Source: a virus (lineage: Duplodnaviria > Caudoviricetes). From it: DNA of 54,265 bases. The stretch is taken from positions 1-54,265 of IMG/VR virus record IMGVR_UViG_3300012936_002700, one strand, 5' to 3'. Each line of letters opens with the position of its first letter. Positions within the stretch are counted from its first letter, which is position 1. The position numbers and the translations under genes were made by a program. The notes beneath the pieces were generated by a model that saw only the letters and a list, made by a program, of their open reading frames with translations, was not told the origin of the DNA and did no database searches. Positions 1,035 to 52,686 of the stretch are shown piece after piece.

Positions 1035-2064
1035 ATGCTTCTGCTACTTCAGGAATGTAATCCTGTATGTGGCATCCTCTTAATTCATCAAATGTTTTTA
1101 TCCAATGCAAAAATGCATTTTGTTCTATTTGATCTGGTTTCTGATTTACCCAATACTTAAATTTTTCTGGCGCAAACTTTTTAATTGTGTCAGGTGCATT
1201 CTTTGAGTCAAAGTATGTAGGATGAAAAAGTAAATTATCAAACACATCAAACTCATTAGTCTTTGCCCATGCAACTATATTATCGTAGTCGTGCAAGTTC
1301 ATTATTTGTATTGTTGGACCAACACTTTTGTATTTTACAAATTCTGCCCAACGTAACATATTTGTTTCTACAGTTTTCCAATCACTACCCCAACGTATGT
1401 AATCATTTACTTTGCCTATACCGTCAATACTAAAACACATATTAACAGTATCAAAACGTTTTAGTTCTTCATAAACATTAGGATTTATAATTGTAGCATT
1501 AGTATTGAATCTTATTTCAACACTGTTATCTAACTTTTTAAGAAACTTGTGTAATCCTCTTACCATCATAGGTTCGCCACCTGTTAAGTACACTTCTCTT
1601 AGTTCGGGCAAACTTGCAAGATAATCTCCACGTTCTTCTGTGTACCAATCGTAATTAGGAAACTGTTCATTACCCCATGGGGATTCCATACCCTTTTTAA
1701 GTAATTCTTTATGATCCTGATTGACTCCGCTTGACGTAGCAGGATAACACATAGTACATTTTAAATTACAGTTACTTCCAAAACGTAAATCAAGATGACT
1801 TACTCCTGGACCGTATTGTCTTGGTTTTGTGCGTTGACTGCCTTTGCCTGACGCTTCCTGTATTTCACACTTTTTACAAGCATCTGGAAATACACCGTCC
1901 TCAAATTTTTGCACTGCGTTTTTAAATACTTTACTTTCACGCCATTCTTCTATAGTGTGTGTTTGTATGTTTTCTTTGTTTGTAGGTTCATTACTTATAC
2001 AACACAAACGGAATTCACCAGAAGTTCTAATACAAACTTGATGGTCTAAATATTTACACTTCAC
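1012..2064 (-). CDS. Radical SAM protein with N-terminal twitch domain
   Basis: CNLKCTMC, YLTGGEP, FNTNAT, SIDG; N-terminal C..CC..CKKC. Probable start GTG at 2064; the track extends it to 2118. Confidence 0.9.
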   Translation of the reverse strand: MKCKYLDHQVCIRTSGEFRLCCISNEPTNKENIQTHTIEEWRESKVFKNAVQKFEDGVFPDACKKCEIQEASGKGSQRTKPRQYGPGVSHLDLRFGSNCNLKCTMCYPATSSGVNQDHKELLKKGMESPWGNEQFPNYDWYTEERGDYLASLPELREVYLTGGEPMMVRGLHKFLKKLDNSVEIRFNTNATIINPNVYEELKRFDTVNMCFSIDGIGKVNDYIRWGSDWKTVETNMLRWAEFVKYKSVGPTIQIMNLHDYDNIVAWAKTNEFDVFDNLLFHPTYFDSKNAPDTIKKFAPEKFKYWVNQKPDQIEQNAFLHWIKTFDELRGCHIQDYIPEVAEAYGLNKRK

Positions 2065-3037
2065 TACAAGTAACCTCACATATTTTAAATCGTTTGTCGC
2101 TTGGTTGTAGTAGAACATTTGATTCTATTATATCTTCTATGTTAGTATCATTTACGTTGGGCCACTGCACACTGTTACATTCTTTAGCATAAGGACTATC
2201 AGGATTCTTAGCATATCTATCACTCAGCAAATAGCAACAAGGAAACACTTCGCCAGTATGACTAATTTGTATTTTTTGTTTCTTTTGCCATTTACAAGTA
2301 ATACAACCTTTGTCTAAACCTTTTTCTAATAAACCTTCTAATCTTACAACATTGTCTAAATGTTTCTTTTCATACTTGATAGTTCGTGCTTCTTCTTTTT
2401 TAGTAGCCTTGAATTTTTCTACTGCTTCAGATACAATACTATTCATAGCAGTAAATGTATATCCGCCATTTATATCAAAAACTTTGAATCCCATATCTTT
2501 AGACAGTTGTTCGCATTTTTCTATTTGATGTTTGTTATGATCAAATACAAGCATACGCCATCTTGCTAAACCGCCTGCGTCTATAAATGCTTTAGCATTA
2601 GCCATTACATTATCCCATACCACATGACGTCTATACAAATGATTAGTATCTTCTAATCCATCTATACTAAATGTAATTACTGCTTGTGGAAAATTACGTA
2701 ATTCTTGTGCAATCATTCTATACAAATTAGGTTTACCTATGCCTCCATTTGTGTGAATCATAATTTTACATTTTAATTTTTTTGCATATTTTAATGCAAA
2801 TGGTAAATTAGGATTCATAAAAGGATCTCCATAACTACCATTAAATATTATTTCTTCAACTCCTTTGGCATCATCTACTATACGTTTCCATGTGTCCATT
2901 GACATATGCCCAAGAGGCATATTAGGATTGACTTTTACACCATCAATATTGCGTGAACAGTTACCGCACATCGCATTACAATGACTTGTAAAATCAACCA
3001 CTATTGTTTTAAGATCTTTTTTAGACAAGAACCGCAT
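2054..3037 (-). CDS. Radical SAM/SPASM-domain protein
   Basis: CNAMCGNC, NGSYGDP, HTNG, FSIDG; C-terminal C...GEVFPCC...CEVTC. Confidence 0.9.
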   Translation of the reverse strand: MRFLSKKDLKTIVVDFTSHCNAMCGNCSRNIDGVKVNPNMPLGHMSMDTWKRIVDDAKGVEEIIFNGSYGDPFMNPNLPFALKYAKKLKCKIMIHTNGGIGKPNLYRMIAQELRNFPQAVITFSIDGLEDTNHLYRRHVVWDNVMANAKAFIDAGGLARWRMLVFDHNKHQIEKCEQLSKDMGFKVFDINGGYTFTAMNSIVSEAVEKFKATKKEEARTIKYEKKHLDNVVRLEGLLEKGLDKGCITCKWQKKQKIQISHTGEVFPCCYLLSDRYAKNPDSPYAKECNSVQWPNVNDTNIEDIIESNVLLQPSDKRFKICEVTCSEV

Positions 3038-3041
3038 ACTG

Positions 3042-3047
3042 TATTTA
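3042..3047 (-). promoter_or_regulatory. T4-like late promoter motif TAAATA, 4 nt before ATG 3037
   Basis: Minus strand GGTAAATAcagtATG. Confidence 0.55.
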
Positions 3048-3083
3048 CCGCCAAAATAGTAGCATTTAACTTACATTGGTAGG

Positions 3084-3089
3084 TAAATA
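3084..3089 (+). promoter_or_regulatory. T4-like late promoter motif TAAATA, 5 nt before ATG 3095
   Basis: GGTAAATAttactATG; divergent from the 3042-3047 motif. Confidence 0.55.
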
Positions 3090-3094
3090 TTACT

Positions 3095-3811
3095 ATGCAA
3101 GAATTGGAACAATACCATAACGAACACGGCATAATTAAGCAAGAATTATATCCAGATACCTTTGACCCTAAGTGGTTAGTGATGGAAAGTGGCTGGGGAT
3201 ATTTTCATCTAAGTGCATTAGATAACCAACCATGGAAAGAAATGCACAAAGAAGCAGAAGCACTTGCAGATAAGTTTCATTCACACAGAGAAGACAGTTA
3301 CGGTAAAGGTTGGAAAAGTTTGACACTACACGGACTTGACGAAGACACACAAAGTCTAAATCAATATGGGCAAAGAGAAGAAGTACTCAAACAATTAGAT
3401 TGGACTTGGGTGGCAGAGAAATGTCCTATTACAAAGAATTTTTTAACAAATGTTTGGCCAGCAGAATTTTTAAATCGTGTAAGGTTTATGTATCTTGAAC
3501 CTGGCGGATATATTCTTCCGCATCAAGATCGTAAAGATGAAGAAAAGCGTTTAAGTGTTTGTAACATAAGTTTGAATAATCCAGAAGGCTGTCAATTTGT
3601 TTACAAAGACAAAGGCATAGTGCCTTTCAAAGACGAAGGTAGTGCATTTTTAATGGACATTAGTAACGTACATTCTGTTTGGAATAAAAGTGATAAGCCA
3701 AGAATACATATGATTATACATTATGAACTTGGTAGACGCACCAGGGATATGTTTTACACATTAAGAGAAAGTTTCTACTCCAATAGGAGAGCAATCAATG
3801 GATTGGAATAG
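3095..3811 (+). CDS. Asp/Asn beta-hydroxylase-like Fe(II)/2OG oxygenase
   Basis: RVRFMYLEPGGYILPHQD (HxD), HSVWN, RIHMIIH. Confidence 0.8.
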   Translation: MQELEQYHNEHGIIKQELYPDTFDPKWLVMESGWGYFHLSALDNQPWKEMHKEAEALADKFHSHREDSYGKGWKSLTLHGLDEDTQSLNQYGQREEVLKQLDWTWVAEKCPITKNFLTNVWPAEFLNRVRFMYLEPGGYILPHQDRKDEEKRLSVCNISLNNPEGCQFVYKDKGIVPFKDEGSAFLMDISNVHSVWNKSDKPRIHMIIHYELGRRTRDMFYTLRESFYSNRRAINGLE

Positions 3812-5258
3812 TTTATCAGTTGATCGTTACTACGAAGACCTTGATGGCAATAATGATGTTGGCATAGGTATATTAGATATCACACGAGATATAGATAACA
3901 AGTTTGTTGCAAAACGCACACTTGATATGACCTACTTTTATATCAATAGAATGATTAAAATGAATTTGTGTTCATATGTAGGACATCATAAAACTGTAAA
4001 AGAAATATTAGAACTTGCAATTATTGAAGGCAAAAAATATTGTATGGTTGCGTGTCAAGGTTTGCTTTTATATAGAGGACCAAGTTTAGTACAAAAAAGT
4101 TTACAGTATGCAGAAAACAATCCTGAATTTTTTGTAATAGGGCATATTATGGACAAGCAAGGGCAACATCATTATCTTACTAAAGGTGCATATCCAGGAT
4201 TACACAGACAATATTTGTTTGTAAATTTGAACAAATGGGTAGAATTAGGACAACCAGACTTTGATGAACTTGGTGTGTTTACAGACAGGCCAAGAAAGTA
4301 TCGCAATGTTGAATATAGCAAAGAAAAAATACACAGTGAATACACACCTAAGTGGGTAAAGGGTGCAGAAGGTTATATGCAAAGCACTATCACTGCTGAT
4401 GGCAGTAACTGGATAAATCTTGCCGCTGAAAACAATATTACAATAGATAACCTTGATAATGATATGCGTGAGTGCAAAGTATTTTTATATCCGTATAATA
4501 AACCACATATACTTGAACAAGTATGGTTAGATAAAACTAATGACAAACTTGTAGATCAATTGAATTACAGTCAAAAGGCTTGGATAAGAAAATTAGGTTA
4601 TCAAGAAGAAATTGAAAAAAATAGAGTTTATGCATTTAATACAGAAAGACTTTCAGGTGAAGGCATTAGAACAAATGGCAAACATATAGATCATTTGTTT
4701 AGTGCGGCCGCTGGATTCAAACCTCTTGCTATTTTAAATGCTAATGGTTTCCATGAAGGTACAACCGTGCATTACTTTGATTGGTGTGAAGCAAGTTTAA
4801 ATTTTAAAAAGCATTTACTTGAAACTTGGGACGGTTATGATTTAGATAAATGGCTCTTAGAACACGATTTAACTTATAACTTCAGTAGCACTTACCGTGC
4901 AAACTATAAAGAATTTTGGCAACAAGAACTAAAAGAGTTTGGTGGAAGTCTTGCATTTCAAAGATTATGGTCAAGATATAAAACTTTAAAACACGAATTT
5001 CATGTAATAGATATCGTAACAGAAAGCAATAAGTTATTTGATCTAATTGATAATGTACATGGTACAAAGGTATTATGGACTACAAATATATGGTCAAGTG
5101 AAATGCTTCAATGGAATGTTCAACCTGAAGAACTTGAAATGCACTACAAAAAATTTAAAAGTAGAATAAAAAATTTAATTGTATATGGACACGATTATTG
5201 TGCAATAGATCTAAATGATAGTATAAAAGGAGATTACACTCATGTCAGATTTGCATGA
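3798..5258 (+). CDS. Hypothetical protein (486 aa), probable enzyme
   Basis: Long ORF overlapping both neighbours; no motif confidently recognised. Confidence 0.7.
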   Translation: MDWNSLSVDRYYEDLDGNNDVGIGILDITRDIDNKFVAKRTLDMTYFYINRMIKMNLCSYVGHHKTVKEILELAIIEGKKYCMVACQGLLLYRGPSLVQKSLQYAENNPEFFVIGHIMDKQGQHHYLTKGAYPGLHRQYLFVNLNKWVELGQPDFDELGVFTDRPRKYRNVEYSKEKIHSEYTPKWVKGAEGYMQSTITADGSNWINLAAENNITIDNLDNDMRECKVFLYPYNKPHILEQVWLDKTNDKLVDQLNYSQKAWIRKLGYQEEIEKNRVYAFNTERLSGEGIRTNGKHIDHLFSAAAGFKPLAILNANGFHEGTTVHYFDWCEASLNFKKHLLETWDGYDLDKWLLEHDLTYNFSSTYRANYKEFWQQELKEFGGSLAFQRLWSRYKTLKHEFHVIDIVTESNKLFDLIDNVHGTKVLWTTNIWSSEMLQWNVQPEELEMHYKKFKSRIKNLIVYGHDYCAIDLNDSIKGDYTHVRFA

Positions 5259-5943
5259 TATGGCAAGACCTCATTGGGACCTTCCTATATATAAACAAGA
5301 AATTCTTACGAACAATGTAGTGTTCAATTATTATGACTGTGATGTATGTGTAAGTATCAGCGGCGGAATAGATAGTGCTTTACTATTGTATAACGTTGCA
5401 TTACATTCTCCTCGTGATATTCATGTGTATACTTTAGCAAATAATGATCTAATGCTTAAAAATGTAACTGCCGCGACAGCAGTAGTTAACAAAGTAAGAG
5501 AACTTACAAACAATCCAAATATATATCATACAGTGATGCATATGGAAGGATCTAAACCAAACGGTGGCGAAGTTATAGGACATAGAATGCGTAAACACTT
5601 TGGCAAATTTATGGAAGTGTGTTATATGGGTGTAACACAAAATCCACCACTTGATGTAATGAAGAACTGGGACGTAGCAGATTGGAGTCACAAGTACAGA
5701 GACAATCTAACAAAAGAATTTGAAGTTTTACCTAACGTAGGCAATATCTATATGCCTTGGACAAATGTACACAAAAAATATATTGCGGCTATTTACAGAG
5801 CCCAAGGATTATTAGATACACTATTTCCTGTTACATATAGTTGTGAATGGTATGCTAAAGACGGCAATGATCCTGGTATGGACCATTGTAAAAACTGTTG
5901 GTGGTGTTTAGAACGTTATTGGGGGTTCAATAGATATGTATAA
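5242..5943 (+). CDS. QueC-like PP-loop ATPase
   Basis: SISGGIDS PP-loop; C-terminal TYSC...HCKNCWWCLER Zn motif. Confidence 0.7.
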   Translation: MSDLHDMARPHWDLPIYKQEILTNNVVFNYYDCDVCVSISGGIDSALLLYNVALHSPRDIHVYTLANNDLMLKNVTAATAVVNKVRELTNNPNIYHTVMHMEGSKPNGGEVIGHRMRKHFGKFMEVCYMGVTQNPPLDVMKNWDVADWSHKYRDNLTKEFEVLPNVGNIYMPWTNVHKKYIAAIYRAQGLLDTLFPVTYSCEWYAKDGNDPGMDHCKNCWWCLERYWGFNRYV

Positions 5944-6478
5944 AGTAGTACAGTGGAATGAATCAATTGATCTAACAGACTACTACAATAGAGCAAAAGA
6001 AAAAGGCTTTGTTAATAATGCAAGTCGTGAAATGCTTATTGATTGTTTTAAGAATGAACGAGAAATGATATTGTTTTTGTTATACGAAGATGATACAATC
6101 ATAGGCACACAAGTATTACATACATTTGATGAGTTAGGTCCTGATGCTTGGAGAGCAGGAAGAACAAGTTTGCTTGTACCACCTTTAGGCAAAGGCAGAA
6201 GTATTATTACAAAGTTTCAAAATCATACAGATCAATTTTTACATCCTGCCGTTATTAATTTTGTGACAGAACGCAAGGGTAAATTATATTCAACTACAAA
6301 TATGAATCCAGAAGCCAAACAAAATCAATCACACTTAATATATTTTCCATTGTTAGAAAAGATGGGTGTAGTTGATAAAGTTAAGGATATGGAATATAGA
6401 TATACCAAACAGTCAGTTTGGAAATTTAATTTTAATCGTTTTTGGGAATTGTATAACTTATTTCCTAAATGGAATTAA
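5936..6478 (+). CDS. GNAT-like acyltransferase, putative
   Basis: LFLLYEDDTIIG beta-hairpin and overall size resemble GNAT folds; weak. Confidence 0.4.
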   Translation: MYKVVQWNESIDLTDYYNRAKEKGFVNNASREMLIDCFKNEREMILFLLYEDDTIIGTQVLHTFDELGPDAWRAGRTSLLVPPLGKGRSIITKFQNHTDQFLHPAVINFVTERKGKLYSTTNMNPEAKQNQSHLIYFPLLEKMGVVDKVKDMEYRYTKQSVWKFNFNRFWELYNLFPKWN

Positions 6479-7773
6479 GCAATCATTGCTACCCACGCCG
6501 AGCCTGTCCAGAACACTGGGTAAGGTGTTGATCCACTGTAACTTGCTGGATCCCAATTAGTCTTGTTAGCAACTGCAATCATTCCAATAACTGGAGTAGA
6601 CGGAGCCGCCGCTTGTGGTTCTAATGTCATTACACCTTCAATATCAATAGTTGATCTTGCACTTGTTCTATTAATAGCAAGTTGACCTTGACTGTCTAAT
6701 ACCATTAGTTTTGGAACTGGTGTAGTATTAGTTCCTGCGTTAGTAATAAATTCTATTTGTCCTGGTGCTTGGTCGTCTGCAATAGTACCGTTTGGATCTG
6801 TTCTAAATAAAATTACAGAAGAAAGTACTTTAGTTCCAAATGTACCAAAGTCTGGATCAAATGCAGTTGCACTGATTTCTCCAATGTAGTTACCAGCAGT
6901 TACTTTAACTTCGTTTCCGCTATCTGGGAATCCACCATAGTAACCATTTAATGTCATACCAGAAATGTTTGCACTTGTGGCACCATTTAAACTGTTAATT
7001 CTTACCGCACTTGATTCGTCGGAGTTCCATACATTAAGTACAGTGTCATCAGTTTCAGTTGGACCACTGATGTTAACTTCTAATTGTGTTGAAAGAAGTG
7101 TGTCGCCAGTTACACTAAACTGACCATTGTTAATAATTACTTTACTGTTTACTGCGTCAACAAGTAATGTTGAATCATCACCAAATACTGAACCTTTAAT
7201 ATCTGCTGTCAAGTTAGTAATTGAAGCACCAGCAAGATCTAAATCACCTGGTACAAATAATGCTCTTGCATTATCCCATATTAAGTATTGTCCTTGTGTA
7301 GGAGTATCACTACCTGATACACTAACATCACCTAAGTTGTCAATGCTTTTTGATGCTAACTGAGCATCTAAATCAAATGATAAAAATGCTTCATCACCTG
7401 CTACCCAACCACCTGCGCCGCCGTTAGCAGTTGCATCATATTTTAAAACTTTGTTTGTAGCAACGCCTGTTACTGCGTCTACGTTAGTTAAATCATTAAG
7501 AGTTTGTGCGATAGACAGTGTTTCTGCCTGCCATCTTGCATTAGGAGTATTCCACTGAAGTACTTGACCGTTTGCTGGAGTAAGAGTGTCTTCTACATCA
7601 GTTAAATTTTGAATTGAAAGGTTAGGGTTAATTTGGACACCGCCAGTTGTTACACCGTCACCTATCCATAGTTTACCTGTATCTGTTACGAAAATGGGTT
7701 CACCCAATGCTGGGTTTATGCCCGTCAGTGCCGCTCTTTCGGCCTCTGTACCTCTTCTAATTTTTAATGCCAT
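6475..7773 (-). CDS. Tail fibre / virion structural protein
   Basis: N-terminal LKIRRGT...GEP..TDTGKLWIGDG typical of phage fibres; repeated L.DL.DV...GQ.L.W units; Gly/Thr-rich. Confidence 0.75.
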   Translation of the reverse strand: MALKIRRGTEAERAALTGINPALGEPIFVTDTGKLWIGDGVTTGGVQINPNLSIQNLTDVEDTLTPANGQVLQWNTPNARWQAETLSIAQTLNDLTNVDAVTGVATNKVLKYDATANGGAGGWVAGDEAFLSFDLDAQLASKSIDNLGDVSVSGSDTPTQGQYLIWDNARALFVPGDLDLAGASITNLTADIKGSVFGDDSTLLVDAVNSKVIINNGQFSVTGDTLLSTQLEVNISGPTETDDTVLNVWNSDESSAVRINSLNGATSANISGMTLNGYYGGFPDSGNEVKVTAGNYIGEISATAFDPDFGTFGTKVLSSVILFRTDPNGTIADDQAPGQIEFITNAGTNTTPVPKLMVLDSQGQLAINRTSARSTIDIEGVMTLEPQAAAPSTPVIGMIAVANKTNWDPASYSGSTPYPVFWTGSAWVAMIA

Positions 7774-18446: not shown

Positions 18447-18642
18447 CAGATACGGTTACCAAAGGTTCGTTTATATATGAATCATTGTAATCGCCGTTTT
18501 TCTGATACTGACGCACTGAAGTATCTTTTACCAGTACACCATCTTTAATAGTGTAAGTTGTATATTCTGCTTTGATTACACCTTCTTTAGATCTTTCAAT
18601 ATGTTCTTTCATTGGACCATCCTGTACTTTAGTCATTTGCAA
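18436..18642 (-). CDS. Small hypothetical protein between folE and queE
   Basis: ORF overlapping both neighbours. Confidence 0.6.
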   Translation of the reverse strand: MQMTKVQDGPMKEHIERSKEGVIKAEYTTYTIKDGVLVKDTSVRQYQKNGDYNDSYINEPLVTVSDVR

Positions 18643-19315
18643 ACTCCTGTTGTAGTTTTACGTTATCTATAAACTCTTTTTTAGTTGCTGGATCATCTTT
18701 AAATGCTCCACGCAACACAGTTGTCTGTGTTAAAGAACTATGTGCTCTAATACCTCTGTTCTCACAACAACCATGAGTTGCTTGTACATACACACCAACG
18801 TGTTCACTGCCTGTTTGTTCTTGAATCGCATTTGCAATCATTACATTCAGTTCTTCTTGTAGTGTACCACGTCTTGCACACCATTGTGCAATTCTTGTGT
18901 ACTTACTTAGACCAAGTAGTTTAGGACCAGCAATAATCCCAATGTATGCAACACCTTTAACAGTTTGGTGATGATGTGAACACAAACTTGTAAGTTCACT
19001 TCTTACTACAAGCATACCTTCGTATCCGCCTTCAATGTAATTAGGAAAGGCACTTGGATTAGGCATAGGATCATAACGACCAGACATAATCTCATTGATA
19101 TACATCTTAGCCATTCGCCTTGCAGTATCTTTACTGTTAGGATCTGTTTCAGTGTCAATTAATAAATTTTGTAGGACATTTTCAAAAGCCGGAACAGCCT
19201 CTTCTATAAGTGCCTGCTTATCGCCTTCTTGTAAGACGTCGCTGATATTGTCATTCGCCCAATATCTTTTACCTGCGTCTTTAAGACGTTGTTTGATTTC
19301 TTTTACTTTTTCCAT
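18629..19315 (-). CDS. folE: GTP cyclohydrolase I
   Basis: TARRMAKMY, SLCSHH, GLSK..R, QE.L, HGC...RG. Confidence 0.93.
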   Translation of the reverse strand: MEKVKEIKQRLKDAGKRYWANDNISDVLQEGDKQALIEEAVPAFENVLQNLLIDTETDPNSKDTARRMAKMYINEIMSGRYDPMPNPSAFPNYIEGGYEGMLVVRSELTSLCSHHHQTVKGVAYIGIIAGPKLLGLSKYTRIAQWCARRGTLQEELNVMIANAIQEQTGSEHVGVYVQATHGCCENRGIRAHSSLTQTTVLRGAFKDDPATKKEFIDNVKLQQEFAND

Positions 19316-44410: not shown

Positions 44411-46663
44411 CTATGCTGTTACAGTTTCTGCTTTTTTACTCGGTACTAATTGGATTTTGTTGTTCTTAGTGTCAATATGCAAGTGGCCACCATCTTTTAG
44501 TTTTCCGAACAATAGTATCTTACTCAAATCACGTTTGATCTCTTTGTCTATTGTACGTTGCAATGGTCTTGCACCCATCTTCTTGTCAAAGCCAACATCT
44601 ACAAGGTAATCAATAGTATCATCTGTAATGTCAACAGTAACATTTTTCTCTTTAAGCATATCACGTAATTCAACAAGGAACTTGCCTACAATTTTGATCA
44701 TTGTATTTTTCTCAAGTTTGCCAAATGCGATAACGCCATCAAGTCTATTACGGAATTCTGGAGCAAAAAACTTCTTAAGTTCTGTGTCTTCGTAATCCAT
44801 TTCCATATCTTCATTGAAGCCGATAGCATTTTTCTCTGCTTGTTCCGCACCTAAGTTAGTGGTAAGGATCAATACACAATTTTTTGCATCGGCTTCTTTC
44901 CCGTTGCTTCCGGTAACTTTTCCATTGTCCATTAATTGTAGTAGAATTTGTGAAACATCTGGGTGTGCTTTTTCTACTTCATCAAGTAGTAATACACAAT
45001 TAGGATGTTCTTGCAGTTTAGTAATTAACTGTCCTGCACTATCTTCATAACCTACATATCCTGGAGGTGAACCAATTAATTTTGCTACTGAATGTTTTTC
45101 TTGATACTCAGACATATCAAAACGTACAAGTTCAACACTTAATTCATTTGCAAGTTGCTTGGCTGTTTCTGTTTTACCTACACCAGTTGGACCCATAAAC
45201 ACAAACGCACCTACTGGTTTGTTATCTGGTTTAAGTCCTGCTTGTGCTACAAGGATTTTGTCTACAATCTCATCAATCGCTTTGTCTTGTCCATAAACTT
45301 GTTTCTTAAGATTATTTTCAAGATGTGCAAGATTGCTTGATTCTTTTTGTGATATTTGCTCTGGCGGAAGTTTAATTGCTTTTGCAAGTTCAAATTCTAC
45401 TTCTGCTTTGCCTACAATTTTGTCTCCTTTAACTTTTTTCAAATTAAAGCGTGAACAAGCAAGATCAAGTAAATCAATTGCTTTGTCTGGTAATTTTTTA
45501 TCTGCCATATATTTCACACTTAATTTAATTGCGGCATCAATTGCTTCTTCTGTAATAGTTGTACTATGATAATCTTCATAATACTTTTTAATACCAAGTA
45601 AAATATCTTTTGTAACTTCTTTGCTTGGCTCTGTAACACTAACACGTTGAAATCTACGCATCAATGCTCTGTCTTTTTCAAAATACTTTCTATATTCTTC
45701 CCATGTTGTACTTGCAACAACTTTAATATCACCTTTACCAAGTGCTGGCTTTAACATATTAGCAAGATCATTTGCACTATTAGAACCACCACCTGCACCT
45801 GCACCATTTATCATATGTGCTTCGTCGATGAATACTACTGTTTTACCTTGCTTTTTAATTGCCTGCATAACAAGTTTGAAACGTTCTTCAAAGTCGCCTC
45901 TGTATTTAGAACCTGCTAACATGGCACTTACGTCAAGATTATATACACTATATTCTTGTAAAAATTCTGGAACTGTTTTGTTAACAATATTAAATGCAAG
46001 TCCTTCAGCAATAGCAGTTTTACCTACACCAGGATCGCCTACAAGTAATACATTGTTTTTAGTTCTACGTCCAAGTGCAAGAGCAATGCTTTCAAGTTCT
46101 TCTGCTCTGCCAATAACGGGATCAATTTTATTTTGTTCAACTTCTTTGTTTAAATTTGTTGTATACTCACGTAAGGCTTTTTGTGCGACTGCTTTCATTT
46201 CTTCGTCGTCTGCCCAAGTATCAATCTCACTGTTTAAGTATTCTGCAAATCCTTCTTTTGTAAGTCCTGCTTTTTGAATATGGTAATATGACCAAGACTT
46301 TTTCTCATTCATGATACTTAAGAACACATCTGTTATCTCAATATGATGTCTACCACTGAACAAAACTTGTGTAAATGCTCTATTAAGAACACGTTCTACA
46401 GTAGCAGTCTTTTTAGGCTTGTATTTTTTAGCCATTTCTGGTGTTAACGTAATATCTTGTAAGTCTGCTTTTAAATAATGCTCAATATTCTTTTTAATAA
46501 ACTCAGGATCTACTCCTGTGCCTTCAACAATTTTACAGAACTTTTCAGAACATAGCATTGCAAATAGCAAATGCTCAAGAGTCACATACTCGTGATTTAA
46601 CTTCTTAGCATCTCCTGTTGCTTTATCAAATACTGCTTGTAAATCGTCACTTGGTTCAACCAT
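44411..46663 (-). CDS. clpA: ATP-dependent Clp protease ATPase subunit, ClpA-like
   Basis: Clp-N (HEYVTLEHLL), GDPGVGKT, GPTGVGKT, DMSEY, PPGYVG, IGF loop, GARPL; no ClpB M-domain. Confidence 0.9.
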   Translation of the reverse strand: MVEPSDDLQAVFDKATGDAKKLNHEYVTLEHLLFAMLCSEKFCKIVEGTGVDPEFIKKNIEHYLKADLQDITLTPEMAKKYKPKKTATVERVLNRAFTQVLFSGRHHIEITDVFLSIMNEKKSWSYYHIQKAGLTKEGFAEYLNSEIDTWADDEEMKAVAQKALREYTTNLNKEVEQNKIDPVIGRAEELESIALALGRRTKNNVLLVGDPGVGKTAIAEGLAFNIVNKTVPEFLQEYSVYNLDVSAMLAGSKYRGDFEERFKLVMQAIKKQGKTVVFIDEAHMINGAGAGGGSNSANDLANMLKPALGKGDIKVVASTTWEEYRKYFEKDRALMRRFQRVSVTEPSKEVTKDILLGIKKYYEDYHSTTITEEAIDAAIKLSVKYMADKKLPDKAIDLLDLACSRFNLKKVKGDKIVGKAEVEFELAKAIKLPPEQISQKESSNLAHLENNLKKQVYGQDKAIDEIVDKILVAQAGLKPDNKPVGAFVFMGPTGVGKTETAKQLANELSVELVRFDMSEYQEKHSVAKLIGSPPGYVGYEDSAGQLITKLQEHPNCVLLLDEVEKAHPDVSQILLQLMDNGKVTGSNGKEADAKNCVLILTTNLGAEQAEKNAIGFNEDMEMDYEDTELKKFFAPEFRNRLDGVIAFGKLEKNTMIKIVGKFLVELRDMLKEKNVTVDITDDTIDYLVDVGFDKKMGARPLQRTIDKEIKRDLSKILLFGKLKDGGHLHIDTKNNKIQLVPSKKAETVTA

Positions 46664-47180
46664 ATGTTATTACACCTTTATATCTTTTCATTAATTTTGC
46701 TTGTTTCTTCTTTGCCATATCTATTTTAATTTTACTTACACGGTCTGTATAATTAATACCATATAAGTGATCAAACTCATGTTGAAATATTCTTGCATTC
46801 CAACCTGTAAACTCTATTGTACATTCTTTTCCTGTAGAGTCAAGAAAAGATGCTACCAAAGCCTCGGCACGTTTTACCTTAAAGTATAGTAATGGAAAAC
46901 TTAAACACCCTTCTTCTCCTAAAACAGTTTGTTCAGATACCTTTTCAATCTTAGGATTGATTACTGCAAAAGGTTTATCATCATAACCTTCAAGTTTTTC
47001 AGGAGATAAAACAAAAATTTGTGCATCAAGTCCTACTTGATTTGCACTTAGACCAACACCATGTTCTTTTAACATGATAGCAATCATTTCCTCTTCAATT
47101 TTTTTAGCATCTAACTTATCAAAATCAAATGGTTGAACTTTCTTTTCTAACCATTCATTTGGATGATATACTAATTTCAT
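46656..47180 (-). CDS. def: Peptide deformylase
   Basis: GVGLSANQVG, EGCLS, QHEFDHL. Confidence 0.95.
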   Translation of the reverse strand: MKLVYHPNEWLEKKVQPFDFDKLDAKKIEEEMIAIMLKEHGVGLSANQVGLDAQIFVLSPEKLEGYDDKPFAVINPKIEKVSEQTVLGEEGCLSFPLLYFKVKRAEALVASFLDSTGKECTIEFTGWNARIFQHEFDHLYGINYTDRVSKIKIDMAKKKQAKLMKRYKGVITYG

Positions 47181-48013
47181 TTCTTTAACTTCCTTATTAC
47201 TTCGCGTTCTTCTTGTGTAAGATTCTTTGGAATCACACCGTTAATTTTTAAGTAAACATTTCCTGAAGATCCAGTGTTATAGTCGGGTAAGCCTTGTCCG
47301 TTTATGCTCATTACTGTGCCTGGTTGTGTGCCTTGTGGTATGTTAATACTTATAGTTCTACCTGAGGGCAAGGTTAAGTTTGTGGTAGTTCCTAATATCA
47401 AATCATATACATTTATAGATTTTTGAGTATGTAAATTCAAATGATCAATATCAAAATTTGGATCACGTAAAATTCTAACTCTAACATTTAAATTTCCTGC
47501 AGGTATATTTGGAATACTATTATCCCCTAAGCCTTGGTACCTAATTGTGTCACCTTGCCTTGCACCTTTGGGTACATCAATATTTACTGTACGTTCTTGT
47601 CCGCTATGTGTTCTGAATGTTGCAATTACTCCCTTTCCAGTATAAACTTCAGCAAGTGTAATATCACAATTGATTGTTATATCTGCATTTTGTTGATGTC
47701 GCGGACCTCTCCGTCCACCAAAGCCTCCTCCAAAAAATGTAGAAAACAAATCTCCCATATCACCATCAAAATGGAATTGAGTTCCTCCACCTTGGAATGG
47801 ATTTGCTTGTTGTGGATCAGCAGTACCATATTGGTCATACATTTGTTTCTTTTGGGGATCGGATAAAACTTGATATGCTTCGTTTAATTGGGTAAATTTT
47901 TTATGGTCACCACCTTTGTCAGGGTGATGCTTTGCCGCTTGTTTTCGGAAAGCAGTTTTTATATCTTTATCTGATGCGTTACGTGAAACGCCTAAAAGGT
48001 CGTAATAATCCAT
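47177..48013 (-). CDS. dnaJ: DnaJ-class co-chaperone without Zn finger (type II/CbpA-like)
   Basis: J-domain HPD, G/F-rich linker, C-terminal domain. Confidence 0.9.
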   Translation of the reverse strand: MDYYDLLGVSRNASDKDIKTAFRKQAAKHHPDKGGDHKKFTQLNEAYQVLSDPQKKQMYDQYGTADPQQANPFQGGGTQFHFDGDMGDLFSTFFGGGFGGRRGPRHQQNADITINCDITLAEVYTGKGVIATFRTHSGQERTVNIDVPKGARQGDTIRYQGLGDNSIPNIPAGNLNVRVRILRDPNFDIDHLNLHTQKSINVYDLILGTTTNLTLPSGRTISINIPQGTQPGTVMSINGQGLPDYNTGSSGNVYLKINGVIPKNLTQEEREVIRKLKK

Positions 48014-48019
48014 AGCAGT

Positions 48020-48048
48020 ATTATATACTTATTTCAGGCGTTTGTCAA
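48020..48048 (-). promoter_or_regulatory. Consensus sigma70 promoter, 6 nt before the dnaJ ATG (leaderless geometry)
   Basis: TTGACA-17 nt-TATAAT-actgct-ATG. Confidence 0.8.
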
Positions 48049-48051
48049 TGA

Positions 48052-48351
48052 TTATTTGTCTGACTTCTTAGATGTACCTGTGTAAAGACCAAACCATGCC
48101 GCGCCAGCACCAACTACAATACTAATCAAACCACTTTGTTCCATTGTAGGTGCCGCCAAGTTCATATACCAAATTACACATTTGTATAACAATATGATGT
48201 AAACTGTTAAAAACAATCTTGGAAAAATTCTCCAAGCATCAACTGCCTTTGCTAAATGGATAAGTCCTTGATAAGGATTCTGCGAACTATCTGTAGTTGT
48301 TGTATCAACTTCAAGATCGATTTGTACACTCTTTTTAACTGGATCACTCAT
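48052..48351 (-). CDS. Two-TM membrane protein, holin candidate
   Basis: D.WRIFPR plus two hydrophobic helices; near lysis genes. Confidence 0.5.
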   Translation of the reverse strand: MSDPVKKSVQIDLEVDTTTTDSSQNPYQGLIHLAKAVDAWRIFPRLFLTVYIILLYKCVIWYMNLAAPTMEQSGLISIVVGAGAAWFGLYTGTSKKSDK

Positions 48352-48632
48352 TATTTTTTACCCTCAAGTTTTTTAAGACGACTTTCAAGTTCGTCTATCT
48401 TCTTAGTCACGTATGGATACTTTTTACGCCAAGCATCTTTGTCCTGTTTAAACCAAGTCCAACCCCAACGTTCGACTAAAAAGTCTACAGTGAGATCAAA
48501 TTTAGCATATAGCCATAGTCCCAATCGTGTGCTTTTGAAATATGTTGAAAATGCTAATCCAAACAATGACCCTACTAATGCTGTGTAGATCCACAGTCTA
48601 TCAGTTGCCATTCTTTCAATCATTTCCCACAT
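48351..48632 (-). CDS. Small membrane protein
   Basis: One TM segment and a basic coiled-coil tail. Confidence 0.65.
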   Translation of the reverse strand: MWEMIERMATDRLWIYTALVGSLFGLAFSTYFKSTRLGLWLYAKFDLTVDFLVERWGWTWFKQDKDAWRKKYPYVTKKIDELESRLKKLEGKK

Positions 48633-48673
48633 AATTTTCGCCCTTCTTTATTATGTAAGTATTTATCTATATA

Positions 48674-48841
48674 TTAGAAAGAACAGGATAGTTCACCCTT
48701 GGGTTTGTAGTTTTCTCTTTTGTTAAGATCTTCTATAGTGTTTGCTTCAACGTCAACTCCAGGCTTAATTTTGCAGTTATTTTTAGCAGAACATGAGGCC
48801 AGAACGATCGCTACTGACAATATGGTTAGTATCCTAAACAT
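48674..48841 (-). CDS. Small lipoprotein (55 aa, not in track)
   Basis: MFRILTILSVAIVLASC lipobox ... ELSCSF. Confidence 0.65.
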   Translation of the reverse strand: MFRILTILSVAIVLASCSAKNNCKIKPGVDVEANTIEDLNKRENYKPKGELSCSF

Positions 48842-48847
48842 ATTATC

Positions 48848-49207
48848 TTATTTTGTTTGGTCGCTTTCGTAATATTCTTTGTATTGATCAATAACCTGAC
48901 GTTGCTTGATCATGTATGCACGGATCTGTGCAAAGTTTTTAGAAAGAAATTCGTAATCTTTATCGCTTAAACCAAATAGCACAGGGTCTTTACCTTCTTC
49001 TTTTAGTTTAGCAAATACTTCATCTGCATTTTCGCTTGTAATGATTACCCATTTCAAAGGTTCCATCTTAACCGCTTCTGGATATGGCAAGTTCAAATTT
49101 TCTCTTGGAACTTCTTGTTCAAAGATTTTTAATTCTTTCACAGTAGAACACCCACTCACTGCTATAGCAAGTAAGGCAATAATTAATATTTTACTCATAC
49201 GGTACAT
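48848..49207 (-). CDS. Outer-membrane lipoprotein, o-spanin candidate
   Basis: Signal peptide with VSGC lipobox; overlaps the 3' end of the i-spanin candidate. Confidence 0.65.
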   Translation of the reverse strand: MYRMSKILIIALLAIAVSGCSTVKELKIFEQEVPRENLNLPYPEAVKMEPLKWVIITSENADEVFAKLKEEGKDPVLFGLSDKDYEFLSKNFAQIRAYMIKQRQVIDQYKEYYESDQTK

Positions 49208-49679
49208 AATTTGGATTTGCTATACTCGGACATTCAGAATTAATTTCTGATTTCAGTGTAGCATTTATTTCCTTCTCTGTTAGTTCTGCTCCCATAGCAA
49301 TTTCTACACATCTCATTGCTTTCTTGGTAGCATTGTTTATAACACGTTCTACTGACTCTGATCTTTTTACAGCAAGATCACCTAAGTCTCTTACTTCACC
49401 ACGACCATTTATTTTATTAAAACGTTTGTCCAGAGCGGCAAACTCTGCGGCAAGCGTTTTATTTGTTTTTTCAAGTTCTTTGTTTGCGGCCAATATTGCT
49501 TTGAAGTCATTTGCCTGTTGTTCTATCACAGCCTTTTGACTTTCAACACTTTTTTCTAACTTTAAATTGTTTGCTTCTGATGTAGCCAAGTCTGCTTTAA
49601 GATTCTTAACATACACAAAGCCACCGCCGGCACCTGCCAACATAATTAAAACCATTGCTATTTTAATTGATCCAAACAT
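49191..49679 (-). CDS. i-spanin candidate
   Basis: N-terminal TM, long coiled coil, C-terminal Cys residues. Confidence 0.65.
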   Translation of the reverse strand: MFGSIKIAMVLIMLAGAGGGFVYVKNLKADLATSEANNLKLEKSVESQKAVIEQQANDFKAILAANKELEKTNKTLAAEFAALDKRFNKINGRGEVRDLGDLAVKRSESVERVINNATKKAMRCVEIAMGAELTEKEINATLKSEINSECPSIANPNYVPYE

Positions 49680-49894
49680 TATGCTTCTACCAGTTTAATA
49701 AAGTCGCCAACTGTTTTTACGTTTGCTTCGTCTTCACTTGAAATAGTTTTGCCTGTTGCTTCTTGTATCGCAACTGCTAACTCAATAATATCAAACTCGT
49801 CTGCACCTAAGTCATCTATCAAAGATGCTTCTGGTACTACCTTAGATACATCAACGTCTAAATGTTCTGCAATGGCTTTAACGACTTTTTCCAT
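49679..49894 (-). CDS. Acyl carrier protein homologue lacking the phosphopantetheine serine
   Basis: EASLIDDLGADEFD.IEL...I...I...D...VKTVGD; canonical motif is DLGADSLD; probable start at 49894. Confidence 0.85.
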   Translation of the reverse strand: MEKVVKAIAEHLDVDVSKVVPEASLIDDLGADEFDIIELAVAIQEATGKTISSEDEANVKTVGDFIKLVEA

Positions 49895-50058
49895 TATCTT
49901 CTTCCTTGTTTGCAAACTTCGATGGTAATTGGCTTACCATCTCCGTCAAGCATTTCCTTAAAAAGAGGTCCTTCGTGATATTCGTGTCCACAGTTAGAAC
50001 AGCCTACTTGGCCATTCCCAACGCTGTGTCCTTCGTTTCTGTTACTCTGCGTGTCCAT
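49894..50058 (-). CDS. Small Cys/His protein (54 aa, not in track)
   Basis: MDTQSNRNEGHSVGNGQVGCSNCGHEYHEGPLFKEMLDGDGKPITIEVCKQGRR; its TAA overlaps the ACP ATG. Confidence 0.45.
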   Translation of the reverse strand: MDTQSNRNEGHSVGNGQVGCSNCGHEYHEGPLFKEMLDGDGKPITIEVCKQGRR

Positions 50059-50531
50059 CCTCTACCAAATGTTTTAAATGTTGATAATGACTCATAGTAA
50101 TCTTGGCGAATCTGTTGGTAGTCTTCGATTGCTTTTGCAACACCATGTGTTTCTACATAGCCTTTTGTTTTTGCAATAGTGTTTGGTCCAATCCAACCAT
50201 CTACTTTTGATCCTGCCATTTGTTGTAAGAATTTAGTTGCTCTATGTCTACCTGCATTTACACACATATCAAAGACACATAAGTCTAAACCTGCTGGAAT
50301 TTCATCTGCCATGATAGCAGTCCAGTAATTCTTTTTGTAAATTGGAGTAACATCTTCAACTGTTAACTCTTTAATTTTATCTTTAGTAACTACTTTACCT
50401 ACCCAATCTTCGTAAGTTTGTTTTGTAACGCCCATATTAGTAGCACCACCTGGGTCTTTTGGATGATCTACATAACCACCTTCATGATGAAGGATAATTT
50501 CTAAGCACTTCTTAAAGTTCTCTGTTGCCAT
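50004..50531 (-). CDS. Endolysin, glycoside hydrolase family 108 with PG-binding region
   Basis: HEGGYVDHPKDPGGATNMG, Y...YW, DG.IGP.T, F..GW..R. Confidence 0.92.
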   Translation of the reverse strand: MATENFKKCLEIILHHEGGYVDHPKDPGGATNMGVTKQTYEDWVGKVVTKDKIKELTVEDVTPIYKKNYWTAIMADEIPAGLDLCVFDMCVNAGRHRATKFLQQMAGSKVDGWIGPNTIAKTKGYVETHGVAKAIEDYQQIRQDYYESLSTFKTFGRGWTRRVTETKDTALGMAK

Positions 50532-50533
50532 TT

Positions 50534-51247
50534 TTAATAACCTCTTTTTAATATTAAACTGTGGCCTTCGTTTTCAAGCACTATCTTCTTACCATATTTT
50601 GTAATATTGTAATCACCTAAGTACTTTGTCAAGTAAATGACCTCAGCGAAGCCGTTAACATCTAACGCTTCATTGATATTTATCTCCTCATTAGCGCCAA
50701 AGTCGATAACTTTGAATACTACTGGATCCTTATATTTATTTTGGATTTTCAAAGTGCTTTCATCTAACATTTCGATACTATCAGCATAACTTTTGTTAAA
50801 AAAGTTTTTGTAGTTGTCCATATGTGATTCTGTAACTCTGATGTCATATGCTTCTTTGTCTGTAGGAATCATTTCTGCTAAATTACTGTCTGATGCATCA
50901 TGACTCTTGAAACTTTTATAGTATCTAAATTTCATACCATCTAAGCCTGCTATTTTTTGAATGCCGTCAATCATTTCATAAATGTTCATTGGACTGTCTT
51001 TTGTTCTTTCTATTTCAACAAATACTTTATACATACCGTCTGATTGTTCACCAGCAGTTGCATCAGCATCTAAAACAAAAGGGTAACCTTTTTCTAAAAA
51101 GTTTTCTAAGTCTTTAGCACTTGATTCATTTTTTGTGGAAAAACTTAAAACACAAATGTCTTGATCTTTTCCCATTTTTGATTTGTAAGAATCTATTTCA
51201 AAAATTCTATCTACGAGGTGTTTTAAATCGTCTTTGCGTAAACCCAT
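50534..51247 (-). CDS. Hypothetical protein
   Basis: ORF; EID.YKSKMG...FLEKGY..VLDAD. Confidence 0.75.
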   Translation of the reverse strand: MGLRKDDLKHLVDRIFEIDSYKSKMGKDQDICVLSFSTKNESSAKDLENFLEKGYPFVLDADATAGEQSDGMYKVFVEIERTKDSPMNIYEMIDGIQKIAGLDGMKFRYYKSFKSHDASDSNLAEMIPTDKEAYDIRVTESHMDNYKNFFNKSYADSIEMLDESTLKIQNKYKDPVVFKVIDFGANEEININEALDVNGFAEVIYLTKYLGDYNITKYGKKIVLENEGHSLILKRGY

Positions 51248-51801
51248 TATACTGCTCCTTCTGCTGGAACTTCTGCACCTGCTCCTACACCTGGTTCAAC
51301 ACCTGCTTCTGCTGGTTGTGCTTCTGGTGTTGGTGCTTGTTCTGCACCTGGCTCAGTAGTTAAGTCTAACATTTCATTGTAGCCACTATAGATATCTACA
51401 ATTAATTTCTTCGGCATCATGATTTCAACAATCCAAATAGGTTCTCTATCAAGTTTACCTTTTTTAGTGCCGGGTCTAATATCACCTGGTTGTTTAATTT
51501 TACGTGGTTTTAGGATATAATCTTTTTTGTATGTTACTTTACAATCGTAATCAAGTAATCTCTTCCCGCCCATTGGATCAGGCATATTGTCTCTTTCCCA
51601 CATAAATTGACAAATTACCCAATGACGCTTAATTTGCGGGCCTGCAACTAATTCGCCATCTTCCCAGTTATCATAAACGTATAAATCTAACTCATCAAGT
51701 ACACGTTCAAAGTCTTTAAGCACTGTAAAAGCGGTATCGCTTTCGTAAATGCCTTGCACGTTTTTAATAACTTCGACTACATCTTTCATATTAGTATCCA
51801 A
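51247..51801 (-). CDS. Hypothetical protein
   Basis: ORF preceded by TAAATA (51813-51818). Confidence 0.75.
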   Translation of the reverse strand: MDTNMKDVVEVIKNVQGIYESDTAFTVLKDFERVLDELDLYVYDNWEDGELVAGPQIKRHWVICQFMWERDNMPDPMGGKRLLDYDCKVTYKKDYILKPRKIKQPGDIRPGTKKGKLDREPIWIVEIMMPKKLIVDIYSGYNEMLDLTTEPGAEQAPTPEAQPAEAGVEPGVGAGAEVPAEGAV

Positions 51802-51957
51802 TCTTATACACTTATTTATCCGGTTTACGTTTATAAGTTAGCAGTTTTGTCATGAAGGTAACCTGCTAAATATTTTTGTAGAACGCAGAAGATATAGCGT
51901 CTACGCTATGTTAATGCAGTATCTACGGTACTTATATAATCCAGATAGGAGGACTGC

Positions 51958-52686
51958 ATGGGTGCAAAACGAAGTGCTCGGAAGAGCAAACACTACAATA
52001 GCAATATTGTGGAAATCAACAAGTTTCTTCCTCAGAAGAAAAAAGAAGTCAAAATCCTTCCAAGAAATATTAATCAAGAAACATACGTGTTACAACTGTT
52101 AGACTCTAAGAAAGACATAGTCTTTGGCATAGGGCCGGCAGGAACAGGTAAAACTCTGTTGGCCGTACAAGTCGCGATTAAACAATTCAAAGAAGGTAAT
52201 GTCGATAAAATTATCGTCACAAGACCCGCCGTAAGTGCGGACGAAGATTTAGGTTTTTTACCTGGTACATTAGAAGAAAAAATGGCACCTTGGACAAGAC
52301 CTATTTTTGATGTCCTTAAAGAGTATTTTACAGCACATGAAATTTCAGGTATGATACAAGAAGGTGTAATAGAAATTGCACCACTTGCATATATGCGTGG
52401 AAGAACGTTTAAGAGAGCGTTTATCATTGCTGATGAAATGCAAAATGCTACACAAAATCAAATGAAGATGTTACTTACTCGTTTAGGTATTGGTTCAGCA
52501 ATGGCTGTAACAGGCGATTTGAATCAAGCAGATAGATTACGTGATAATGGCTTAATTGATTTTTGTAGACACTTAGATAATAAAGGTGGTGCTCACAGGA
52601 TCGATGTTGTCGAGTTTACAAAAGGAGATATTGAACGACACGATGCAGTCAAAGAAGTATTAGAAATTTATGGAGATGTAGTTTAA
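51958..52686 (+). CDS. phoH: PhoH-like ATPase
   Basis: GPAGTGKT, TRP, LGFLPG, YMRGRT, DEMQN, LTRLG, TGD..Q.D. Confidence 0.95.
   Translation: MGAKRSARKSKHYNSNIVEINKFLPQKKKEVKILPRNINQETYVLQLLDSKKDIVFGIGPAGTGKTLLAVQVAIKQFKEGNVDKIIVTRPAVSADEDLGFLPGTLEEKMAPWTRPIFDVLKEYFTAHEISGMIQEGVIEIAPLAYMRGRTFKRAFIIADEMQNATQNQMKMLLTRLGIGSAMAVTGDLNQADRLRDNGLIDFCRHLDNKGGAHRIDVVEFTKGDIERHDAVKEVLEIYGDVV

Follow-up and report, generated by a model that had tools for sequence, protein, structure and literature searches.

The window analyzed here is a 54,265-nucleotide stretch of viral DNA (Duplodnaviria; Caudoviricetes) that spans positions 1 to 54,265 of the IMG/VR record IMGVR_UViG_3300012936_002700. Inside a lysis cassette on its minus strand lies a gene (49679..49894) for a 71-residue protein that resembles an acyl carrier protein (ACP) but lacks the serine to which the 4'-phosphopantetheine prosthetic group is attached. 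The translated open reading frame (ORF) contains the motif DDLGADEFD, and a family profile compared with solved ACPs (best E = 2.8e-17) aligns Glu33 under the phosphopantetheine serine of DLGADSLD. The Glu33 codon is GAG (49796-49798, or CTC on the plus strand), which is at least two base changes away from every serine codon and falls in the first turn of helix II. An earlier note, made from the letters of this DNA, had described a clear ACP sequence reading DLGADEFD with a GAG codon more than one base from any serine codon, and both the codon and its coordinates hold on verification.

The window encodes a real ACP homolog whose identity is confirmed far above chance, and the results from Pfam, PHROG, profile comparison, AlphaFold2, and Foldseek all agree on this point. 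The protein matches the Pfam PP-binding family PF00550 with 34.5 bits (cut-off 20.8; E = 2.6e-8) over profile positions 1-66 of 67, and it also matches phrog_5934, 'acyl carrier protein' (E = 2e-9). A six-frame search of the record recovers the same gene with 33.3 bits and finds no second PP-binding gene. The AlphaFold2 model has a predicted local distance difference test (pLDDT) score of 94.1 and consists of four helices at residues 2-12, 33-47, 53-57, and 62-70. Foldseek returns 75 matches to this model in the PDB at E <= 0.001, and those listed are almost all ACP chains, with the holo-ACP of H. pylori as the top match (template modeling score 0.92, root mean square deviation 0.9). The protein is very acidic (isoelectric point 4.1, net charge -11), and neither a transmembrane segment nor a signal peptide is predicted in it.

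The PP-binding domain and the four-helix fold are thus present, but the serine of the D-S-L motif that marks a functional holo-ACP is not, and no second DSL-like motif occurs in the 71 residues. The curated AcpP models of NCBIfam all score the protein under their cut-offs (TIGR00517, 51.6 versus 70.45; NF002151, 58.9 versus 92; NF002148, 61.9 versus 71), and PADLOC has no match for the ACP-like proteins. Genes for a phosphopantetheinyl transferase (PPTase) or for Fab, Lpx, or Pls enzymes were not found among the 67 other ORFs of the window, which is a fragment with a CheckV completeness of 15-20%. The PPTase family PF01648 likewise has no match in five related contigs of 60-71 kb, which are fragments of the same estimated completeness.

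Site Variation and Selection

A search of 5.8 billion proteins yields 60 relatives of the ACP-like protein with 69-100% identity. At the position of Glu33, 40 of the 60 have Glu, 20 have Asp (one of them missed by the motif regular expression and read by eye), and Ser is absent. The 27 sequences from the window and 26 related IMG/VR loci, which comprise 19 distinct coding sequences, between them use every acidic codon (GAG, GAA, GAT, and GAC). A tree of 58 rows calls for about seven switches between Glu and Asp and for none that leaves the acidic class. By this pattern, acidity at site 33 appears clearly to be under selection in the clade of the window. The prediction that the protein cannot be loaded is supported by every one of these homologs.

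The gene as a whole does not appear to be decaying. Of 171 sequence pairs, the 164 with dS > 0.05 have a median ratio of nonsynonymous to synonymous substitution rates (dN/dS, by the Nei-Gojobori method) of 0.20; the seven pairs at dS <= 0.05 were dropped. Across the 26 related loci the reading frame is never broken, and the protein is 72-99% identical compared with 56-95% for the spanins encoded beside it. A total of 31 columns are invariant among 22 aligned proteins. The earlier note had named conservation of the glutamate and dN/dS as checks on its reading, with serine in close homologs and signs of decay in this copy as the contrary outcome; what is found is an acidic site throughout, a low dN/dS, and a gene order that is the same in all 26 loci.

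The family of the window protein seems to form a compact clade distinct from ordinary ACPs, because only one cluster among 1.84 billion cluster representatives falls below 1e-30 with the family profile. The nearest serine-bearing ACPs are at best 46-51% identical to the window protein. Individual family proteins recur on 50-164 contigs each, and some of these contigs are longer than 200 kb. The next-best small matches in the profile search are 72-residue proteins whose site residue is Gly, Pro, or Trp.

A sister clade of such 72-residue proteins (P0069-like) occurs on marine viral contigs, and its members at 16 IMG/VR loci are 56-61% identical to the window protein. The site at these loci is Pro in 11 cases (CCA or CCG), Ser in three (TCA), and Ala in two (GCA). 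Among 94 database matches, a regular expression reads Pro in 39, Ser in 20, Gly in 11, Ala in eight, Thr in five, and Val in one; the 10 rows that it leaves unmatched are, by eye, Pro in six and Ala in one, with the region lacking in three. Two of the Ser rows (DSLD, 51% identity) are probably true ACPs. One sister-clade cluster has 820 member sequences, and the P0113 type with Trp at the site gave no usable viral locus.

In a maximum-likelihood tree of 144 rows and 72 columns, which is poorly resolved, the two clades are split by one branch with a Shimodaira-Hasegawa-like approximate likelihood ratio test value of 93. When the tree is rebuilt without the site column (removed assuming 1-based column numbering), the site needs about 16 changes among the 77 sister-clade rows; this count and that of about seven in the window's clade, which comes from the same rebuilt tree, are rough. 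Both clades keep D28, L29, A31, D32, D35, E38, G48, I51, T61, V62, and D64. They also share two family-specific residues, F34 in place of the Leu after the site and T47 in place of the core Phe of 'EEEF'. A single-step codon path exists among the observed residues (TCA to GCA to GAA), which would explain how a glutamate two steps from serine arose. The range of residues at the sister-clade site (Pro, Ser, Gly, Ala, Thr, and Val) suggests that the lineage at large can do without the prosthetic group and that negative charge at the site is not general.

The Lysis Cassette

All genes of the cassette lie on the minus strand. The transcription order is two virion-family genes, a GH108 endolysin, a 54-residue ORF, the ACP-like gene, an inner-membrane spanin (i-spanin), an outer-membrane spanin (o-spanin), three small genes, DnaJ, and peptide deformylase. 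The endolysin (50004..50531; Pfam, 8.4e-30; phrog_315, 3.8e-50) has an additional weak PG_binding_3 match and no signal peptide. The Rz-like i-spanin (49191..49679; phrog_739, 6.5e-12) begins with a transmembrane segment at residues 4-22 that is followed by a coiled-coil-like region. The Rz1-like o-spanin is a lipoprotein (48848..49207; phrog_812, 5.3e-11) with the lipobox ..VSGC, and its gene overlaps the 3' end of the i-spanin gene by 17 nt. With an endolysin and a two-component spanin on its flanks, the locus is a lysis cassette by gene content. Two genes matching the PHROG 'virion structural protein' families phrog_13138 and phrog_12928 (50534..51801) are tightly packed against the upstream side of the endolysin gene, and the cassette accordingly resembles the closing part of a late gene block.

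At both junctions of the ACP-like gene, with the 54-residue ORF upstream and with the i-spanin downstream, the sequence TAATG has one base common to the stop and the start. The earlier note had placed the gene between the endolysin and the spanins and had called it translationally coupled. The gene does lie inside the cassette, but it is not adjacent to the endolysin because the conserved 54-residue ORF, which the note had overlooked, intervenes, and the junctions fit coupling without proving it. The T4-type late promoter TATAAATA occurs just once in the entire window and well away from the cassette, compared with 7.5 matches expected by chance. A scan of 47900-52100 for sigma-70 promoters and terminators gives promoter-like sites that are not above those of shuffled sequences, and no operon boundary is readable from it. 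The ACP-like gene and its junction with the i-spanin are represented, at 88-99% likeness, in RNA-library contigs from three studies (for example, 49155-49826 and 49381-49811); the interval 49923-50321 has no coverage, a gap to which no meaning is attached. These contigs give a weak hint of expression, given that DNA carry-over is possible in such libraries.

This arrangement recurs in the relatives. An i-spanin begins no more than 5 nt 3' of the ACP-like gene in 26/26 related viral loci, and the o-spanin is next in all 25 loci that extend that far. The 54-residue ORF precedes the ACP-like gene in all 25 loci that extend upstream, and the two overlap by 1 or 17 nt except in locus L026, where a 2-nt gap separates them. 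The endolysin slot holds a GH108 match in 21 loci, a Peptidase_M15_3 domain in L013 (2431-2892), and GH19 with PG_binding_1 in L020 (2008-2871), whose layout is repeated in L024. Four loci carry tandem GH108 pairs (L011, at 1835-2281 and 2353-2868; L012; L022; and L023). Because the endolysin family changes while the order stays, the sequences point to a true lysis cassette with a swappable endolysin and with the ACP-like gene as a fixed member. Considered separately, this single slot is also a clear case of endolysin module swapping.

The 54-residue ORF (49894..50058, minus strand) overlaps the 3' end of the endolysin gene by 55 nt. It is intact in 24 related loci, and in L007 it is cut only by the end of the contig. 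Its invariant residues (C20, N22, C23, G24, H28, G30, D38, G39, V48, and C49) form a C-x-N-C-G...H...C pattern, and the core of its AlphaFold2 model, at pLDDT 73-87, includes a beta-hairpin. The ORF is thus real and conserved, and on the strength of the invariant Cys/His pattern and the modeled hairpin its product is probably a zinc-ribbon-like, zinc-binding protein. It has 238 metagenome relatives of 36-93 residues, all of them unnamed and some on contigs of up to 343 kb. Foldseek finds no PDB match at E <= 0.001 for the model, whose overall pLDDT is 68.8; Pfam, PHROGs, NCBIfam, and PADLOC have no match for the ORF; and Protein Atlas places it in unnamed clusters only. A complex prediction of the ACP-like protein with this ORF and Zn scored 0.00, but it was run without controls and counts neither way.

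The sister-clade genes occupy more varied positions. Homologs of the window's spanins are present in 10/16 sister-clade loci, and in seven of these 10 the ACP-like gene comes within ~65 nt after the o-spanin; in the remaining three, 0.7-1.9 kb separates the two. The order in L039 is M15 endolysin, i-spanin, o-spanin, and ACP-like gene, with the last two overlapping by 17 nt. The other 6/16 loci have the gene next to Lys-rich phrog_727 proteins, with ferredoxin, peroxiredoxin, or superoxide dismutase close by, or else have it flanked by tail-tube-like and head-closure genes. A hidden Markov model of the zinc-ribbon-like ORF has matches at only two sister-clade loci, L044, whose own sequence had gone into building the model, and L045, in both cases 2.2 kb downstream. 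These several contexts suggest that the ACP-like gene is mobile among late and accessory regions and is not bound to one partner gene.

Three small genes lie downstream of the o-spanin on the minus strand. The first, just past it, is a 55-residue lipoprotein-like ORF with the lipobox LASC (48674-48841), which is weakly conserved (32-51% identity, with a tblastn match in 13/26 related loci). A basic ORF of 93 residues (48351-48632) and a 99-residue membrane protein that matches phrog_10198 (48052-48351) follow. These genes (48052..48841) may encode a holin or accessory proteins. Next to the cassette on the minus strand (44414-48013) is a cluster for chaperones and protein maturation, which encodes a ClpA/ClpB-like double AAA+ protein of 750 residues, a peptide deformylase, and a full DnaJ.

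Cultured Relatives and Other Phage ACPs

Among cultured phages, the window is closest in DNA to three T4-like marine myophages, HTVC008M and Mosig, both of SAR11, and Melnitz, of OM43. The DNA match to them consists of the endolysin only, at 67-68% identity, and their GH108 genes stand in other gene contexts. No homolog of the ACP-like gene is found in them by tblastn. Proteins identical or nearly identical to the ACP-like protein are encoded on contigs of 189-272 kb, and CheckV assigns a completeness of 15-20% to the fragments of 54-71 kb (the window and the related contigs G001-G005). Given this low completeness and these long contigs, the phages of this kind, which are related to pelagimyophages, may have jumbo-sized genomes.

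Two other regions of the window deserve mention. A minus-strand gene at 6478-7773 has an Mtd_N domain, the N-terminal domain of major tropism determinants (E = 9.4e-9), and the protein could be the target of a diversity-generating retroelement. Genes for radical SAM, Asp/Arg hydroxylase-like, QueC-like, and GTP cyclohydrolase I proteins are found at 1015-6475 and 18632-19315 and could be connected with base modification, by 7-deazaguanine or in another form.

Phage-encoded ACPs are in themselves already known, and BFVD contains many phage proteins with the ACP fold. When the ACPs of cultured phages are translated, the serine is kept in 5/5. One of them, from the Erwinia jumbo phage pEa_SNUABM_12, is a 134-residue protein with a 60-residue N-terminal extension and a C-terminal, serine-bearing ACP domain that is 29% identical to the window protein. 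Its gene is directly upstream of those for a membrane protein and an o-spanin (L052 2599-3752, which equals MT939486 91098-92251), and its spanins are unrelated to those of the window. Passages in the report on the Erwinia jumbo phages remark on the adjacency of ACP and o-spanin, list the ACP among proteins found by particle mass spectrometry, and state that an i-spanin is not observable in these genomes (PMC7760394). We note that the membrane protein between the ACP-domain gene and the o-spanin resembles an unannotated i-spanin.

The contexts of four other cultured-phage ACPs contain hypothetical genes only and have no annotated lysis link. In Vi01-like phages, the relevant passages of one report put the annotated ACP, gp186, far from the spanins gp49/50 and credit it with one peptide in particle mass spectrometry of one such phage (PMC10892097). 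Full-text searching of the published literature returned no description of a serine-less phage ACP or of this family. The main text of a pelagimyophage metagenome survey is silent on ACP and lysis, and its supplements may list the gene (PMC7029224).

A Possible Competitor of Host ACP

We propose that the window encodes a carrier-dead, AcpP-derived binding protein that competes for host ACP docking, and we give this statement as a whole a probability of roughly 45%. Its components are not equally firm. The protein is very likely a selected, carrier-dead ACP of a binding type, since purifying selection has persisted despite the lost need for phosphopantetheine, as would be expected of a folded binding module and not of a carrier. 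That the targets are host ACP clients is more tentative, being suggested by analogy, and we would put it somewhat short of even odds.

According to this proposal, an AcpP-derived four-helix protein that can no longer receive 4'-phosphopantetheine, and that is kept so by selection, would be produced as a cytoplasmic, very acidic protein from a late block of closely packed genes. Being unloaded at all times, it would compete with host ACP by occupying the proteins on which that ACP docks, and acyl-ACP-dependent envelope lipid synthesis would consequently be shut down late in infection. The N-terminal half of the ACP recognition surface on helix II is kept, with D32, D35, and E38 (presumably E. 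coli D35, D38, and E41) invariant or nearly so in both clades. Three changes surround the recognition helix, from Ser to Glu or Asp, from Leu to Phe, and from Phe to Thr. The sister clade has at least three genomic contexts, as one would sooner expect of an accessory gene that acts on the host by itself than of an indispensable component of one phage machine. What we infer on top of these observations is binding to host clients, a consequence for the envelope, and whatever the acidic side chain may do other than cap the helix.

There is some precedent for an effect of unloaded ACP. An original study of 1995 reportedly found that apo-ACP inhibits growth in E. coli, and we know of no other documented way in which an unloaded ACP exerts a biological effect. 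According to a review passage (PMC3896788), glycerol-3-phosphate acyltransferase is inhibited more by apo-ACP than by holo-ACP, and SpoT does not bind apo-ACP; the passage therefore argues for the acyltransferase and against SpoT as a target.

The SpoT statement is one of several points that weigh against competition for host docking. The C-terminal acidic patch of helix II, which we take to be E. coli E47-E49, is lost (E-E-E has become Q-E/K/N-A), and many ACP-enzyme contacts may be gone with it. The only clue to the host comes from the cultured relatives, which are phages of SAR11 and OM43, and SAR11 may be without an acyltransferase of the PlsB type, the one inhibited by apo-ACP in E. coli. 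No PP-binding gene is present in HTVC008M, Mosig, or Melnitz, so one is not essential to such phages. None of the tests in this analysis identified a binding partner. Finally, the gene in the window's clade is always in the lysis cassette (26/26 loci) and is always preceded by the zinc-ribbon-like ORF (25/25), and a phage partner would explain this fixed position equally well.

Alternative Explanations

A role as an accessory of the lysis module would have analogs, though neither is homologous to the ACP-like protein, in T4 RIII and the Ms6 endolysin chaperone Gp1, which regulate lysis from the cytoplasm. Such an accessory might bind the holin tail, the endolysin before its release, or the zinc-ribbon protein, and it could tune the timing of lysis or keep its partner inactive or soluble. 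The order of zinc-ribbon ORF, ACP-like gene, i-spanin, and o-spanin is fixed in 26/26 loci with overlapping stops and starts, and the slot is unchanged while the endolysin swaps from GH108 (21 loci) to Peptidase_M15_3 (L013) or GH19 with PG_binding_1 (L020). The very variety of endolysins, however, makes a specific endolysin partner unlikely, and the spanins are periplasmic whereas the ACP-like protein has no export signal. In the sister clade, 10/16 loci, including L039, also have the gene near a spanin pair, but 6/16 place it away from spanins. Reports on other phages also differ, with a serine-bearing ACP-domain gene upstream of a membrane protein and an o-spanin in the Erwinia jumbo phage (passages of PMC7760394) and an ACP gene far from the spanins in Vi01-like phages (passages of PMC10892097). 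Gene order in T4-like phages is generally conserved, which makes position a weak sign of shared function, and we regard a lysis accessory as rather unlikely. The earlier note had instead held that the glutamate imitates the phosphate in a decoy for ACP partners, which would weaken the envelope or alter signaling at lysis. On such a reading, Glu or Asp in the place of phosphopantetheine's phosphate would make the protein look like holo-ACP and let it jam Fab, Lpx, Pls, SpoT, and MukB better than apo-ACP does. An acidic site in 60/60 homologs, reached through four acidic codons and about seven switches that are all acidic, agrees with this idea, as does the predicted placement of the side chain, which begins helix II in the very spot that the phosphoserine ester would occupy. 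The sister clade, however, has no charged residue at the site (Pro, Ser, Gly, Ala, Thr, and Val are found there), and the claim is unsupported as stated. Acidic residues, Pro, Ser, Thr, Gly, and Ala are favored at helix N-termini, so a structural reason is sufficient, and helix capping alone accounts for both clades. A carboxylate also stands in for the phosphate only and leaves unreplaced the acyl chain and the pantetheine arm, which are what most clients recognize, and MukB is, to our knowledge, absent from the likely host groups. Phosphate mimicry is in our estimate quite unlikely; a charge-dependent role in the window's clade is possible, given its held acidity.

The same low expectation applies to the boldest version of a decoy, in which abundant marine jumbo-type myophages would encode an acid-locked imitation of holo-ACP, made with the lysis proteins, that jams acyl-ACP-dependent lipid A and phospholipid enzymes of the host and so halts envelope synthesis shortly ahead of membrane fusion by the spanins. 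If this doubtful version were true, the hypervariable site of the sister clade would be the trace of an arms race with AcpS or the ACP clients of the host, and the protein would be the first viral one known to mimic a carrier protein. A virion-associated protein or a chaperone, which would be packaged or would escort or neutralize very basic phage proteins with no link to host lipids, is highly unlikely even though the cassette follows two PHROG 'virion structural protein' genes and the sister-clade gene can lie between tail-tube-like and head-closure genes or beside Lys-rich phrog_727 proteins. ACP is abundant, sticky, and a frequent contaminant, and no result in this analysis indicates packaging of the window protein. 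The annotated ACPs that passages of two reports describe from particle proteomics, in Erwinia phages (PMC7760394) and, with one peptide, in a Vi01-like phage (PMC10892097), are distant serine-bearing proteins (29% identity) represented by few peptides. A neutral passenger, a decaying remnant of host acpP, or a carrier loaded at another residue is barely credible. An old capture would fit the 46-51% identity of the nearest serine-bearing ACPs and the scores under every curated AcpP cut-off, but neutrality and decay are at odds with the median dN/dS of 0.20, an identity (72-99%) at least as high as the 56-95% of the spanins, the intact frame in 26/26 loci, the 31 invariant columns in 22 proteins, and the presence of single family proteins on more than 100 contigs each. 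Loading at another residue is opposed by the lack of an alternative DSL-like motif in the 71 residues.

Competition for host ACP docking is the reading that we prefer. In annotations, the ACP genes of phages usually appear as auxiliary metabolic genes and are presumed to encode carriers. Here a widespread phage ACP lineage appears to have given up the prosthetic group and yet is under strong selection, which points to a protein-binding role of the ACP fold in infection, either in host lipid shut-off or in the control of lysis. Such genes should therefore not count as fatty-acid metabolism in viral surveys. The two clades also provide a natural mutant series at the site, with Glu or Asp in one and Pro, Ser, Gly, Ala, or Thr in the other. 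What is new is a carrier-dead ACP family of marine phages that, in the window's clade, is fixed in a lysis cassette.

Comparison with Known Systems

The window protein has the length and four-helix fold of bacterial AcpP (PF00550, TIGR00517), and it is 36-45% identical to solved ACPs. It also shares the DLGAD loop, D35 and E38 of helix II, and the TVxD sequence before helix IV. It departs from AcpP in the replacement of Ser by Glu or Asp, of the next Leu by Phe, and of the core Phe of 'EEEF' by Thr, and in the loss of the E-E-E patch. In addition, it is phage-encoded, and no PPTase, Fab, Lpx, or Pls genes were found nearby on the fragments available.

Annotated phage ACPs of phrog_5934 (Erwinia pEa_SNUABM_12 gp158, Erythrobacter R6L gp32, Brevundimonas Bajun, and Serratia BF) have the ACP fold and are phage-encoded like the window protein, but the five cultured-phage ACPs that were translated keep the serine, and identity to the window protein is only ~27-43%. 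The sister clade is more similar. It has the family-specific Phe after the site, has 'ATG' in place of 'EFG/EFD', and is mostly found beside a spanin pair. Its site, however, is hypervariable and not acidic, its gene comes after the o-spanin and not before the i-spanin, and no zinc-ribbon ORF adjoins it.

The inhibition by apo-ACP in E. coli, as described in passages of PMC3896788, is the closest functional parallel to the proposed competition for host docking. In both cases an ACP without its prosthetic group would act by binding and not by carrying. The E. coli effect is an overexpression artifact of the host's own protein, whereas the unloaded state of the window protein is fixed in the gene, appears to be selected, and is encoded by the phage.

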